Assembly (NCBI GenBank): GCA_000004985.1
Contig: GG738873.1
Source of the DNA: Naegleria gruberi
Lineage: Eukaryota
Reading direction: 5' to 3' (one strand)
DNA: 64,000 bases
In this document: piece after piece, positions 33,368 through 54,007 of the stretch
How positions within the stretch are numbered: position 1 is the stretch's first letter
Layout: each line of letters begins with the position of its first letter
Made by a program: the position numbers and the translations under genes
Notes under the pieces: model-generated
Databases searched by the model: none
What the model saw: the letters and a program-made list of their open reading frames with translations, nothing else
Told to the model about the DNA's origin: nothing

Positions 33368-36046
33368 ATGAAAAAACAACACAACAGCAAGGTGAGAAAA
33401 TCCATGAATCCCTCCTTGTTATCTTCTCTCTTGCCAACACCAACAGCATCATCAACAACTGAAGATATTTCTGAGGAGCCAACAGATTCCTCTCCTATTA
33501 GAGAAACAACAACAACAAGAAGGAGAAATAATCATGCAACAGTAGTATTGGCAATTGATGAGGAGGAGAATGATAATGATGATGAGGAAGTAAATGATGA
33601 AATTGGATTATCCATTGCAAAGAGTGAGATTTCCCTCCGAACACTTCCAATGATTAATTCAATAGAAAAGGATTTTTCCGATGATGATGAAGATGATGCA
33701 GATGAAGCCTTTGATGATTTGAATGAAGAAGAAGAAACTCTATTATACTATCGGAGGGATGACACTGTGAGTGAGGATTCATCTACTGGAGCAGCTGCTT
33801 CCTCTGCTATCAATGGAGGATTTAATTCATCATCAAACAATGCTACTAGAGGAGTCTCTAATCCTCTTCTCGTAACATCAGAAGCAACAAATCCAATTCT
33901 TAATTATGGAACTGAAAAGAAGAAGAAAAAGAAGAAGAAGAAGAAGAAATCAGACAAGGCCAAATTGGATTTACAATTCATGATTCGGTTTTTCAAAATA
34001 ATTGGATATTGTCTGAGGGATATTGGATATAATAGTGATTATCATTGGACTGATGAGAATGGAAGAAGAGTTTCCAGATTGTTTTCAAGAAAACGAGTCG
34101 TGCATGAATTGAATCAATCAGAGAAGAAGGGATGTGGAGCATTTTGTTACAACTTTTCATTGTTTAACGTGTTTTTGGTGGTTCTCTTCTTGCTTATTTG
34201 CATTGGAGAGATTTTACTGGGAAATGAAGTTGGTAAATTACCTGGAGCTTTCTATACTGTAATTATTGATGCGAGTTCTAAGAATTTTGGAGATGCCAAA
34301 CCATTTATTCATGTCATGTTGACAAGTTTACTTTGGATTTGTGGAATAACAGCTCTGAAAACTTTTAGACAATTTATTTTGGATGTTATTCGAGTTTATT
34401 GGAGAAGAAATTTAACTTATCATACACAGAGGAGATATTTCGAGAATAGTAACTTTTACAAAATGTTGTTACTTGATAAGAGAATTGATAATCCAGATCA
34501 AAGAATTACCAAAGATGTAGAGAATTTTGTAGATATGACTTGTAAATTAATTGAGAGTGTTTTCACAGGACCAATCACTGTATTTTACTATACTGTCACT
34601 GTGTTTATGAATTTGGGTTGGCAAGGGCCTCTTTTCTGCTTTGTCTTTTTCATTATTGGTTCCATTTGTAACAAGTTGATTATTTCACCAATTGCTAATT
34701 TGTGGTTTATTCAAGAAAAGTTTGAAGGAAATTTCAGATATACTCATGCATTGTTAAGATCAAATGCAGAGTCTGTTGCCTTCTATGGAGGAGAATCAAA
34801 TGAAAAGATCAAGTGCAATCAAAAGTTGAAAGGAGTAATCAAGAATAGAAGAAAGATTGTTGTGTGGAATTTACTCTTGAATGGAAATATGAATTTATTT
34901 GGTTATGTTGGAAGTATTTTGGCATATGTGATTGTTGCCATTTCTGTATTCTTGATTGGTGGATTTATTGATGCCAATGCTACAGCAGGTGAAATTGCTG
35001 GCAAGATTTCTGTTGTAAGTATTCTTGATTGTGTAAATTAACATGTGCAGTCTTCATTCCAAGTAATGATGCTCATCTATGGTTTTACCACCTTCATTCA
35101 GACTGGTGCTAATATTTCAGAACTTGCTGGTTTTACTGGAAGACTCGGTGAAATGTACGAAGTGATGAATGAAATTGAGAAGGATACTGAATTGAATAAT
35201 ATTGGAAAGGTTACTGAGGAACACTCACTTTTGGAATCAACAACATCCAATAATAATTATCAACAAGAATCGGATAGATCTGGATCCACCGATACTAACG
35301 ACGTGAACTATATTGAATTTAAGAACGTCTCTGTATCTGTTCCAAAAGGTATCAGAGAAAAGTACAGAACCAATCACAACCTTGTTGAAAATCTTAGTTT
35401 CAAGATTTTACCAACTCAACACACTTTAATTGCAGGTCCTAGTGGTTGTGGTAAATCATCAGTTTTAAGAATTTTGGCAAATTTGTGGCCAAACAACTCT
35501 GGACAAATTATCAAACCGTCCACAACTCTTGGAAACAGTTCGAAACCAAATATTTTCTACGTTCCTCAAAACCCTTACATTTCCAGTGGTTCGCTAAGGG
35601 ATCAAATTACTTACCCACTCAAAACTCCAAAGAGAAATGTGGAAGATCATCCAGCTCTCTTAGAAGCCATTCAGCAGTCTCGACTCGAATATATTCTCGA
35701 ACGAGTTCATAAGAAGGATTGGGATGGTGAGTGTAATTGGAATGAATTGTTGAGTCCTGGAGAGAAGCAACGTTTAGCTCTTGCTAGAATCTTTTATCAC
35801 AAACCTAAATTTGTAATTCTCGATGAAGCAACCAGTGCTTGTGATGTAAATGTTGAAGAGATGATTTATCGTGACATTATCAAACAAGGATCTACAGTCG
35901 TTTCAGTTGGCCATCGTCCAACCATTGTGAAATTCCACACTCACATGCTTAGACTGAATGGATCAGCCTCAACTTTGGAAAATGCTAAAGGATGGGAATT
36001 TGGAGAAATTTCAGAATTCAGAACGAAAAAGAAGAAGAATTATTAA
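33368..36046 (+). CDS. ABC transporter, subfamily D (peroxisomal-type half transporter). join(33368..35014,35051..36046).
   Basis: ATG follows an A-run. A low-complexity N-terminus precedes a membrane domain with ABCD hallmarks (NPDQRITKDVENF, EAA-like loop). A 36-nt intron (GTAAGT...gtgcag, phase 0) joins it to a nucleotide-binding domain with Walker A GPSGCGKSS, signature LSPGEKQRLALAR, Walker B VILDEATSA and an H-loop. Confidence 0.8.
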
Positions 36047-36085
36047 ACAACAATTATTTCTACCAATATTATTTACAAATATTAT

Positions 36086-36969
36086 TTACATTGTATATTT
36101 TGTTTCAAATTCCTTCCTTTCCATTCGCCTTCTCAAATTCCTCTTCATTCTTTCCCTTAATTGTTTTTGTTTCCTTCTTATTCTCTCTGGAGTTATCAGT
36201 CGTTGAATTTTCACACCTTTCACATCGGATTTCTTACAAATTTTGACATTTCTCTTAATGACAAACTTTCTGACATCGTCCTCTTTTGAGAGATTGAATA
36301 ATTTCCGTATTTTTGAAGCTCGTTTAGGTCCAAGAGTTTTGTGTTTTGGATCATCAGTGAGGCCAACAATTACATGAGCTGGAGATTTGATTAATTTCAA
36401 AGAAACAGCAGAAACTGAACGATCCAGGAAACATCCCATTAAGGTTTTTCTTCTCCTTTCTCCATCTCTTTTTCTCCAACATTTCTGAAATCCAAATTCG
36501 CCTGCCCTTAACAACGGACTAATTTTTCCAATTTTCAATATTGTAGGATGACACTGTTTACCATTGTTATTGATAGCAGCTGTGATTTTAAATTTACAAT
36601 TTGCCAAATCAGGAATATTCAATATATCACCAGAAATGCATTCTCCAATTCTTTTTCCAAGAAATGGAAATGATTGATAGTACAAATCTGAAGTTTCGTA
36701 TACTTTTGTTTGACTAGTGAGTGGATTTGATACTTGAAGCTTCACAGAATTGCATTCTATTCATCTCGGAATCAATTTTGAAAACTTACCTTTCTCAAAT
36801 AATAATACTTTGGTTGACCTGAATACGTAGCCCTGTCAGCCATCTGTTCTTGCATGTTGACATCCTGTGAAAAGTATTGTATTCCTCTCGAATATTGATC
36901 ATCAAGTCTATTTATTGGCTTTGATGATGCTGGTTTGCCAGGCATTGAAAGTTTGCTTCTTCTGTACAT
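36086..36969 (-). CDS. rps6: 40S ribosomal protein S6e. Proposed join(36086..36739,36790..36969) with the ATG supplied by a 5' exon.
   Basis: Exon 2 (36086-36739) begins at codons K-L-Q-V-S. It aligns to S6 from residue 2 onward (KLQVSNPLTSQTKVYE vs MKLNISFP...; KRASKIRKLFNLSKEDDVRKFV). There is no ATG in frame: the track M is a GTG, and an in-frame TGA lies 6 codons upstream. The upstream ORF starts at a strong aaaaaaaaATG (36969) and ends exactly in RK|GTAAGT. A 50-nt intron (acceptor gtgaag at 36740) joins it in phase to LQVS. The 5' exon assignment is moderately confident; exon 2 is highly confident. Confidence 0.6.
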
Positions 36970-37020
36970 TTTTTTTTCAAAGTTCCACCAATGTTCTGAA
37001 AATTACGGCACAGAGATGAA

Positions 37021-38244
37021 CTACCAGTAGATCAAATGAGTTATTTTCCTAATTTCTTCAAATTCTATTAGACATTCCTCAAAATTAGCAATAAATTCAT
37101 TAGATTCTGAATCGTCAATTCGATCCACGAGTCGATCGACCTTCTTTACAAGATTCTTGACCTTCACTTTATCTTCTTCTTGGAATAGTTTGCTTGATAT
37201 TCTATTGAGATGAACAATTTCCTCTTGTAAATTATAAATCAAGCCAATAATACCCAATTCTTCACTCCAAATTTTTCTAAATTCATTCAGAGAAATCATT
37301 TCATCCTCAATTGGATACAGAAGATAACTTCCAAGTCGATGGTTCTTAAAAAGCAATTTGAATAATCTTGATTGACCACTTGGAACCAAAACTCCCAATG
37401 TAATATTCGTTTCAATAGTTCTGTGTGCATATTCCAACCAATATTTCAAATTCACATTCAATTGAGAGATTTTTGAATCACTCAATAGAATATTTTCCAA
37501 AACCGATGGGTGTATTTGATCCCTAATTGAGATTTCAAGAATTTGCCTATCTTTTGAGTTATAGACATGTCCAAGTCTTAATTTGTAATATTCACAGTCG
37601 ATTTCTTCTAGATTAGGCAATAAACTGATGATTGGATTGAAAACCTCTTGGAAATCAAAGGAAGGAAATGAAATGAACATTTTGGTGATTGTTCTGAATT
37701 CACTAGGAATTGCTGGTTGTCTAAGTTTCAAGTCAAATGTCAATTTCATTGTTTCTATTAGAGGATTTAATTCTCTGTTTTCTTGAAGGCAATCCTTTAG
37801 GTATGAAATATCACAGGCAATGAGTTTCTGGATTATTTCTTTGTTTTTCTTTGACTGGAACAAATCTTTCACATTCAAAGTTATTGATCCAATGTGTTCT
37901 TTCAAACGATCATTCAAAGTTTTTTTGGAATCAGTTTCTTCTTGAATGACAGCAGTTTTCTCAACTTGAATTTCTGGTAATTTTTCTTCCACCTCCTTAT
38001 CAACTATTTGCTCAGCTTCATTCCCATGTCCAATCAATTCCAATTCCTCTTCATGTTGGGCAGTTATTGTCTGTTGTTTGGATTCGATAGCACAACCAGA
38101 TAAGCCATGATTGGAGAGATCAAGAGTTTGTGTCTCCTTTTGATTTGTGGCAGGAGAACAACGTGCGTGAAGATAAACTTTATAAATCCAGAGGAACAGT
38201 TGAGGATCTTGCGTAATTTGTGAAAAGAGTGTGTCTGTTGCCAT
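37021..38244 (-). CDS. Hypothetical protein (407 aa) with an acidic, coiled-coil N-terminal half
   Basis: Long ORF with a 9-A run before the ATG. I recognise no domain. Confidence 0.5.
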   Translation of the reverse strand: MATDTLFSQITQDPQLFLWIYKVYLHARCSPATNQKETQTLDLSNHGLSGCAIESKQQTITAQHEEELELIGHGNEAEQIVDKEVEEKLPEIQVEKTAVIQEETDSKKTLNDRLKEHIGSITLNVKDLFQSKKNKEIIQKLIACDISYLKDCLQENRELNPLIETMKLTFDLKLRQPAIPSEFRTITKMFISFPSFDFQEVFNPIISLLPNLEEIDCEYYKLRLGHVYNSKDRQILEISIRDQIHPSVLENILLSDSKISQLNVNLKYWLEYAHRTIETNITLGVLVPSGQSRLFKLLFKNHRLGSYLLYPIEDEMISLNEFRKIWSEELGIIGLIYNLQEEIVHLNRISSKLFQEEDKVKVKNLVKKVDRLVDRIDDSESNEFIANFEECLIEFEEIRKITHLIYW

Positions 38245-52326: not shown

Positions 52327-54007
52327 TTATTCTCGTGGTATTTTAATACGTTCTGTAACTCTTCCAAACAGATTTACAAATGAAAGTTCCATAATATTCG
52401 AAGATAATCTTATATAGATAAATCCAGATTCTTGTTGGAATTTCTTCAAGTATGGATGGTGGTTTGAAACATCAAAGCGAACAGCTGATCCAGCTCCAGA
52501 AATGAAATGGTTAAGAGTGTCGTATGGTTTCAAGTATTGAATACTGTGGTCATGTCCTGAAAAATAATATCTAATATCATTCTTCCTAAGGAATGGAAGT
52601 AAATGTTCAATGAGATTTTCATTGTCTCCGTGTGTGGATGCTGAATAGAATGGATGATGTCCAATTGCAATCTTCCACAATGGAATATCACTTTTCTTAT
52701 CATCGGTGGCAAATTCATTCACATTCTTTCTCAAAATATTTGTTCTCGATCTTTCAGAGTTGATGAAATATGAAATGGCATCCTCTTCTCCACTCTCAAT
52801 GTTCTCGTCTAATTGTTTCATAACAGTTTCCATGTACTTTTTTTGAGCTCGAATATCTCTGGTTTTGTGGAGGGCTTCCTTATTCATTTTAGGATGAGTA
52901 TAATACTTGTGAATGAATGGATTAGTATCGAAAAACAAAAATTGAACTCTAAAATCAAAATTTCCAACTAGATTTCCAATAGTGTCAGTTCCATCTTTGG
53001 AAAGAAGTTGAATTCTCTTCTCTGGGAAGTACATTGTCTCTGAAAAATACTCTGATGCAATATATAAACGTTTGGATGAAGAAGGGTGATTGGTATATTC
53101 GATTTGAGCTGCTGGATTGGATCTATAATCTAAATTATTTAATAATATTAATCCAATTATTATAAAAATTATTGAAATTCCACATACCATGATTTCCCAA
53201 AACAGATAAGAATGGAATTTTTTGCAAACTTTCATGTTTGTACACATTTTCAAAACTCTCCTTAAACAAAGGATCATCTACAGATTTTACACCCTCTATT
53301 ATTATTATTAATATTGAAATAATTAAATTTCCACTCCAAACAGTAAACTTACCTTGATAGAAATTATCTCCAGTTGAAATAGCAAAATCACATCCAAAAT
53401 TTTGACAATAATATCCCATCTGCTCTGCAACATGTGACTGATTGAATGCTCCCTTTCTTCCCCAATCCCCAAATACTATAAACTTTAAAAACTTTTCATC
53501 AGATTTTGAAGAATACTTCAAATGCCAATCATTCTTATCATTACTCGAAACAACAGAATAAATTCCAATCTTGAATTGATCCATCTCTTCATCAGTCAAT
53601 ACAAAAAACACAACACTCATCAAAATAATGGTCGACAATATTATCAACAAGGAACAAATCAAACACATGGAAAAATAGGGCGAATTTCTAATAATTCCAA
53701 ATTGTGAAAGTTTTTGATGTTTCTGTTGCCACATTGACAAGAATCCAGAATCTTTCTTACTATCCGAATATGAAGAATAGGATGATGGTAATGTTGATGA
53801 AAATTGGAAAGTAGATGTTACAGTACTCGGATCAGATGAATATTCCCCACCACCACTATTACCCTGTCCACTATTCGATGCTCGGAACATTCCACCACCA
53901 ACACTATCGACACCTACTCCTCCTCCAGCACCTCCAGCACCAGCACCTCGAAATGATAATAAATTATTGCTCGAGAAGGTTTTTCTATTGTTGAGGAGGT
54001 GAGCCAT
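52327..54007 (-). CDS. Membrane-anchored purple/tartrate-resistant acid phosphatase (ACP5-like calcineurin-type metallophosphoesterase). join(52327..53129,53188..53295,53353..54007).
   Basis: ATG follows an A-run. A G/S-rich N-terminus precedes a TM helix (FSMCLICSLLIILSTIILMSVVFFVL). Phosphatase motifs are GDWG, GDNFY, GNHD and GHDH. Two introns were found by alignment to ACP5. A 57-nt in-frame GTAAGT intron removes an 18-aa hydrophobic insertion after GDNFYQ. A 58-nt GTATGT intron splits GNH|D and explains the two overlapping ORFs in different frames. Confidence 0.8.

Follow-up and report, generated by a model that had tools for sequence, protein, structure and literature searches.

A proposed two-exon gene of Naegleria gruberi for a divergent eS6-like protein with a 60-residue N-terminal extension

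We have found that an S6e-domain gene of Naegleria gruberi, which appeared to lack an initiator ATG, very probably consists of two exons and encodes a 277-aa eS6-like product with a 60-aa N-terminal extension, as a member of a fast-evolving, Naegleria-restricted clade that is distinct from the housekeeping protein. The ATG seems to be missing because exon 1 was left out of the public gene model, XP_002676285. The GTG-AAG that directly precedes exon 2 is the 3' end of an intron, and the gene is a divergent, lineage-specific paralogue of eS6 and not the housekeeping copy. Positions throughout are those of the window, by which we mean the whole 64,000-nt stretch of N. gruberi DNA that was analysed.

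Results

The S6e-domain frame and the proposed gene

The minus strand of the window holds, at 36086-36745, an S6e-domain ORF of 219 codons that starts GTG AAG CTT CAA and is translated as (V/M)KLQVSNPLTSQTK..., with K-L-Q-V-S-N-P following the GTG at the N-terminus. Residues 1-131 of this ORF match the Pfam family Ribosomal_S6e (PF01092) with 98.9 bits, against a cut-off of 26 bits, over profile positions 1-125 of 125. From Lys2 on, the ORF is 100% identical to XP_002676285.1 / EFC43541.1, an N. gruberi "predicted protein, partial" of 218 aa that begins at Lys2 and is flagged incomplete. Reading of the frame revealed no ATG between the in-frame TGA at 36763-36761 and the S6e homology. The preliminary description had likewise placed the start of S6 homology at K2, with a GTG where an ATG was expected and a TGA six codons upstream, and all of these coordinates check. 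The features of the proposed gene are as follows.

36970..36977, minus strand: A8 run directly 5' of the start codon, a start context typical of N. gruberi
36967..36969, minus strand: proposed initiator ATG (Met1), the first ATG downstream of an in-frame TAA
36790..36969, minus strand: coding part of exon 1, 60 codons (MYRRSKLSMPGKPASSKPINRLDDQYSRGIQYFSQDVNMQEQMADRATYSGQPKYYYLRK), the N-terminal extension
36740..36789, minus strand: 50-nt spliceosomal intron, phase 0, with donor AAG/GTAAGTTT and acceptor gtgaAG/CTT
36763-36761, minus strand: in-frame TGA, six codons upstream of the GTG
36745-36743, minus strand: GTG codon, followed by AAG CTT CAA
36086..36739, minus strand: coding part of exon 2, 217 codons and TAA, with the S6e domain and a C-terminal helix

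Transcription of this gene would start within the 51-nt spacer that follows the TAG stop of the upstream gene (37021-37023), and translation would begin at the A8-ATG at 36969. Exon 1 would supply the 60-residue extension, its last codon, AAG (Lys60), standing in place of the canonical Lys2 of eS6. Removal of the 50-nt intron (36789-36740), which would be of the U2-type GT-AG class, would join exon 1 to exon 2 (36739-36086), which would contribute the S6e domain and complete the 277-aa eS6-like protein.

Exon 1 and its start context

The upstream ORF is preceded by an in-frame TAA 11 codons upstream of ATG 36969, and its codon 60 is AAG (36792-36790), which adjoins GTAAGT at 36789-36784. The earlier report of a 60-codon ORF, 50 nt upstream, that opens at the A8-ATG and ends in ...AAG/GTAAGT was confirmed at every coordinate. 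Residues 1-60, the extension, contain LDDQYSR and GIQYFSQDVNMQEQMADR, and a Pfam search of the 65-aa upstream ORF returned no family. The closest relative, an environmental locus (L001), also has an A8-ATG at its Met1.

Across both strands of the window, a run of at least six A residues directly before an ATG proved to be a very specific start-site signal for gene modelling in N. gruberi. There are 17 such sites, 16 of which open ORFs of at least 60 codons, compared with 15% of all ATGs, and 15 of which open ORFs of at least 100 codons, compared with 10% of all ATGs. Both neighbouring genes clearly start at such sites (38244 and 33368). The upstream neighbour (37021-38244, minus strand) is an ORF of 407 aa with an A7-ATG start and without a Pfam match. 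Its TAG stop (37021-37023) is separated from the eS6-like start codon by only 51 nt, so that the promoter and 5'UTR must fit within this spacer or overlap the 3' end of the neighbour.

The intron and its splice signals

The 50-nt intron includes both the in-frame TGA (36761-36763) and the GTG pseudo-start (36743-36745), and the CTT at 36739 carries the frame on in phase 0 after the 50-nt interval. That the acceptor gtgaag/CTT CAA keeps phase 0, as first described, is borne out by the sequence and by the conserved position of the intron in relatives. The donor octamer, GTAAGTTT, is identical to the donors of ORF-joining introns at 53352 and 16943. In the window there are about seven short GTRAGT...AG intervals, of 36-142 nt, that link long ORFs. 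On the minus strand, further candidate short introns of this GTRAGT...AG type lie at 53352-53256, 48647-48593, 25432-25291, 18010-17973 and 16943-16901, the acceptors of the longer ones being tentative.

With the donor at 36789, the S6e frame stays complete only if the AG at 36740 is used. Just one further acceptor for this donor is ORF-compatible, the AG at 36554, but its use would remove 62 codons of the domain; it was rejected, as were two AGs within the intron (positions +25 and +33), which give out-of-frame products with early stops. The chosen acceptor is AAG, compared with YAG in the relatives and in most introns of the window. Its branch point is represented by a weak candidate only, GCAAT or TTGAT, and there is no clear pyrimidine tract; the relatives and the other introns of the window have TTAAC, CTAAT or ACTGA, followed by YAG. 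An Rfam search of 35900-37200 gave only a chance, sub-threshold miRNA match, and thus points to no non-coding RNA in the intron or the spacer.

A micro-exon of the form ATG-AAG, which the preliminary description had named as a find that would speak against it, was sought as ATGAAG/GT in the 275 nt between the stop of the upstream gene and exon 2, and none was found in that interval; the relatives have an exon 1 of 57-63 codons in place of any micro-exon.

A gene for an ABCD-type ABC half-transporter (33368-36046, plus strand; PF06472 and PF00005) lies beside the eS6-like gene and is split by a 36-nt in-frame intron (35015-35050; GTAAGT..AATTAAC..CAG) that contains a TAA, so that the six-frame list shows two abutting ORFs in the same frame. 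The in-frame stop of this transporter had suggested that TGA or TAA might be sense codons under an alternative genetic code, an idea that was rejected because the stop sits inside this clean 36-nt GTAAGT...CAG interval.

Relatives share the extension and the intron position

A homologous N-terminal extension of 57-63 aa occurs in six relatives, which come from N. gruberi, N. lovaniensis, N. fowleri and environmental contigs. In five relatives (L001, L002, L003, L005 and L006), a phase-0 intron of 45-211 nt occurs at exactly the same codon boundary. The loci compare as follows, with the residues on either side of the intron separated by a slash.

Window locus, N. gruberi: exon 1 of 60 codons; LRK / LQV; intron of 50 nt
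L001, closest relative, environmental, 63% aa identity: exon 1 of 63 codons with A8-ATG; LRK / IQV; intron of 45 nt
L002, N. lovaniensis (P0003): exon 1 of 58 codons; ..HH / YQVS; intron of 124 nt
L003, N. lovaniensis (P0008): exon 1 of 58 codons; ..RR / FQIA; intron of 172 nt
L005, N. fowleri: exon 1 of 60 codons; ..RR / FQIA; intron of 103 nt
L006, environmental: exon 1 of 58 codons; ..RH / FQIS; intron of 211 nt

Exon 1 of the window gene is homologous to the first 57-63 aa of the products P0007, P0003, P0008 and P0005 and of those of L001, L005 and L006. The motif KP..[KR]LD...G.G..[HY]M.QD.D[VL] is common to P0007, P0003, P0008 and the environmental P0005 and aligns with window exon 1. 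In the alignments used to judge family membership, the motif takes the form KP..[KR]LD...G.G..[HY/F]..QD.D, directly before [LIFY]Q[VIL], and the window gene has it as well. Residues 12-36 after Met1 are conserved in the paralogues, and the first ~10 residues of the extension are poorly conserved across the extension-bearing family. At the position of Lys2, the last codon of exon 1 encodes Lys, Arg or His in every relative.

The intron of L001 has the donor GTGAGT and the acceptor TTTAG/ATT CAA, with an in-frame TAG directly before exon 2, so that no local start is possible there; the last six intron bases are CTTTAG in L001 as against GTG-AAG in the window gene. The window gene and L001 lack synteny, and L001 may thus be a close paralogue and not a strict orthologue. 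A genomic contig (L008) shows the extension and the S6e domain in one continuous ORF without an intron (..GFYMNK FQLSDPTTG..), starting at aacaaaaaATG; extension and S6e domain are therefore one polypeptide in the extension-bearing family. The intron of L008 was either lost or never present. Comparison with the rps6 loci of related species, which had been proposed as a check, thus disclosed the same architecture of extension and intron, and the homologous extensions, the conserved boundary and the L008 fusion together support the view that the Lys of the canonical MKL comes here from the upstream exon. The recurrence of this architecture in six related loci, the start context and the single acceptor that preserves the whole S6e frame go beyond what would be expected by chance.

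The gene belongs to a clade apart from canonical eS6

In a neighbor-joining tree of 216 S6e-domain columns, all extension-bearing copies group together (100% bootstrap support) as the sister of canonical heterolobosean eS6 (98.5%), and their branches are much longer than those among the near-identical canonical copies. A family profile searched against 5.8 billion proteins separates members, at 316 bits or more, from canonical eS6, at 242 bits or less; two double-length eS6 models, P0128 (beetle) and P0129 (hookworm), also score above 316 bits. All named members of the family recovered in this search are from Naegleria (N. gruberi, N. lovaniensis and N. fowleri), and Willaertia and Acrasis gave canonical-type matches only. 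Exhaustive HMMER searching of 1.84 billion representatives with an extension-only profile (A4) found three matches, all of them to this S6-like family. Because the extension profile matches only this family and the extension matches no Pfam family, we regard the extension as a lineage-specific module. A second extension-only profile (A1) gave nothing at E<=0.01 in the 5.8-billion-protein database, a result that is uninformative for so short a profile in so large a database.

The canonical eS6 of N. gruberi is XP_002676748 (NAEGRDRAFT_68050), which lies on another scaffold and clusters at 90% identity with the MKLKISDPSTG-type eS6 of N. lovaniensis and N. fowleri. The canonical gene of N. lovaniensis (C9374_009547) is intronless and starts MKL, which indicates that the intron and the extension were acquired by the paralogue lineage. 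Heterolobosean-specific residues are common to the window protein and the canonical Naegleria copy, and the window gene thus stems from a duplication within that lineage. The preliminary description had regarded the missing ATG as an oddity of a core ribosomal protein. This was not borne out, since the canonical eS6 is encoded on another scaffold and the window gene falls in the long-branched clade; the core eS6 of N. gruberi is ordinary, and nothing here upsets what is known of the core ribosomal protein. A literature search found no paper that mentions these accessions or Naegleria S6 paralogues.

Selection and predicted structure

Compared with L001, the window gene has a dN/dS of 0.52 in exon 1 (60 codons) and of 0.24 in exon 2 as a whole, with 0.36 in the N-terminal S6e domain and 0.08 in the C-terminal third; dS is about 0.9, which is near saturation, and exon 1 is thus no more than moderately constrained. 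At such a dS, neutral DNA would have lost co-linear frames of 60-63 codons with a matching start and donor, which argues for a constrained coding gene with a looser extension.

An AlphaFold2 model of the 277-aa product has a mean pLDDT of 78.4. The S6e part (residues 61-277) reaches 71-97, mostly above 80, and the extension 39-63, where short helices are predicted at residues 18-26, 29-32 and 39-49; the extension appears either disordered or under-sampled in the model. The top Foldseek matches (E=1e-19, ~35% identity, about 213 aligned columns) are without exception eS6 chains, taken from structures of the 40S, the 80S and the SSU processome, and by this model the eS6 fold is retained. From the near-invariant C-terminal blocks and the retained fold, we infer that the strongly conserved C-terminal half would bind 18S rRNA or pre-40S particles, from which the low-confidence extension may protrude as an added module.

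Discussion

Sequence comparison suggests that the two-exon gene is spliced and expressed in N. gruberi. It is extremely improbable that the mRNA is instead unspliced, or starts downstream of 36790, with non-AUG initiation at GTG 36745 yielding a 219-aa protein (M/V-KLQVS...) and the 65-codon upstream ORF being an unrelated uORF or a chance frame. The GTG-AAG-CTT does resemble a canonical M-K-L start, and the public model begins at the same Lys. However, in L001, the closest relative, exon 2 is immediately preceded by TAG, with neither GTG nor AAG there, and every relative takes the Lys, Arg or His at this position from the final codon of exon 1. Homology links the upstream ORF to the N-termini of the paralogues, in L008 it is physically fused to the S6e domain, and the GTG lies inside a GT-AG interval of conserved position. 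The preliminary description had offered either an extension of 18-60 aa or non-canonical initiation; the extension stands, most probably at its full 60 aa, and initiation at GTG finds no support, given the TAG of L001. The in-frame ATGs that had been described at 36969, 36945, 36855 and 36843 are all present, and the last three would allow the same two exons to be translated from an internal Met, namely M9 (36945), M39 (36855) or M43 (36843), with an extension of 52, 22 or 18 aa. The poor conservation of the first ~10 residues across the family accords with such a later start, which is nevertheless most unlikely: only ATG 36969 has the A-run context, as does Met1 of L001, and scanning ribosomes would reach it first. 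Initiation at M39 or M43 would also delete the KP..RLD...G.G..Y..QD motif, since residues 12-36 are conserved in the paralogues.

Decay of the locus has also to be weighed. A weak 3' splice site with an AAG acceptor and no obvious branch point, the long branches of the extension-bearing clade and an exon 1 omega of 0.52 would all fit a decaying or unexpressed paralogue in which efficient splicing or expression has been lost and the open frames are residual. Searches for transcript-derived sequence point the same way: the exact spliced product has no match in a 15-billion-protein collection, and JGI metagenome contigs do not contain the junction 24-mer. Yet both exons are intact, with neither frameshift nor stop, the A8-ATG start context is kept, and the dN/dS of exon 2 and of its C-terminal third against L001 (0.24 and 0.08, at a dS of ~0.9) is low. 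The S6e domain is also predicted to fold confidently. We therefore consider a pseudogene very unlikely and retain the two-exon gene as the preferred reading.

The protein of this two-exon gene is alike in S6e domain and fold to canonical eS6 (XP_002676748, C9374_009547), and the blocks GPKRASKIRKLFNLSK..DDVRK and KGVKIQRL.TPERIRRK are nearly invariant between them. Its identity to canonical eS6 is only about 40%, however, whereas the three canonical Naegleria copies form one 90%-identity cluster, and its N-terminal beta-domain is fast-evolving, unlike that of canonical eS6. The canonical M-K-[LF] N-terminus, which sits right at the first beta-strand, is absent; the 60-aa extension replaces Met1, and Lys60 aligns with Lys2. 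The intron lies between the equivalents of codons 2 and 3, whereas the canonical N. lovaniensis gene is intronless.

Of the same architecture are the annotated Naegleria paralogues, XP_002670307 of N. gruberi (NAEGRDRAFT_74747, P0007, 286 aa), C9374_007606 and C9374_014249 of N. lovaniensis (280 aa each) and FDP41_010695 of N. fowleri, which share the 57-63-aa extension with its motif, the phase-0 boundary intron and the S6e domain, and which fall in the same clade. Their identity to the window protein is 39-45%, and they sit on separate branches, not grouped with the window gene. Introns of 103-172 nt with YAG acceptors interrupt these paralogues, as against 50 nt and AAG in the window gene. 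The public models differ as well, that of the window gene being without exon 1 and that of N. fowleri starting from an internal Met.

Ribosomal protein genes of intron-poor eukaryotes can have 5'-proximal introns. In RPS6A and RPS6B of Saccharomyces cerevisiae, the first exon of which is just ATG-AAG, an intron likewise lies at or beside the codon 2/3 boundary, and exon 2 alone looks 'ATG-less'. Exon 1 of the window gene, by contrast, has 60 codons with a conserved extension and is not a micro-exon, and the intron belongs to the paralogue clade, since none interrupts the canonical Naegleria eS6 gene. Divergent ribosomal-protein paralogues, such as RPL22/RPL22L1 and RPS27/RPS27L, have been proposed to serve specialised ribosomes or extraribosomal roles. 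The Naegleria case resembles these pairs in that a duplicate is kept under purifying selection beside the housekeeping copy; it differs in a far greater divergence (~40% identity), in the added N-terminal module and in the presence of several fast-diverging copies per genome.

Naegleria, including the pathogen N. fowleri, thus has fast-evolving eS6 paralogues with a unique extension beside a nearly invariant canonical eS6; the genomes of N. gruberi and N. lovaniensis each have at least two such variants, and that of N. fowleri has one or more. This small family offers a tractable candidate case of natural heterogeneity among the ribosomes of a deep-branching eukaryote. More speculatively, and as a possibility that we hold to be rather doubtful, these private, rapidly diversifying variants may define distinct 40S subunits through the extension that they would place on the 40S, or they may have an extraribosomal job. 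If the former were true, ribosomes could be stage-specific (amoeba, flagellate, cyst), for example, or altered under pressure from pathogens. The constrained C-terminal rRNA-binding half (omega 0.08) and the fold that the structural model retains are compatible with incorporation into ribosomes.

Several public gene models are affected. The "partial" XP_002676285 should give way to the complete two-exon model of 277 aa, and FDP41_010695 of N. fowleri needs the same correction at its 5' end. In the latter model (P0009, 245 aa), translation begins from an internal Met (MTDWKD...), and the homologous extension begins 42 codons further upstream (L005, 1375-1554 of VFQX01000006.1; MVRLEKGPYKV...), which shows that FDP41_010695 is N-terminally truncated. 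The canonical N. gruberi model XP_002676748 (P0122, 219 aa) starts M-TKMVV... and is without the KLKISDPSTGC segment of its N. lovaniensis and N. fowleri orthologues, and is probably another gene model truncated at the 5' end. Some other public S6 models are oddly long. In P0126, a short in-frame intron at the extension/S6e boundary seems to have been translated as coding sequence, P0128 (Gonioctena) and P0129 (Ancylostoma) have 460 and 414 aa, and P0132 (Acrasis kona) has 419 aa and combines PF09451 with PF01092; these are likely to be merged or unspliced gene models.
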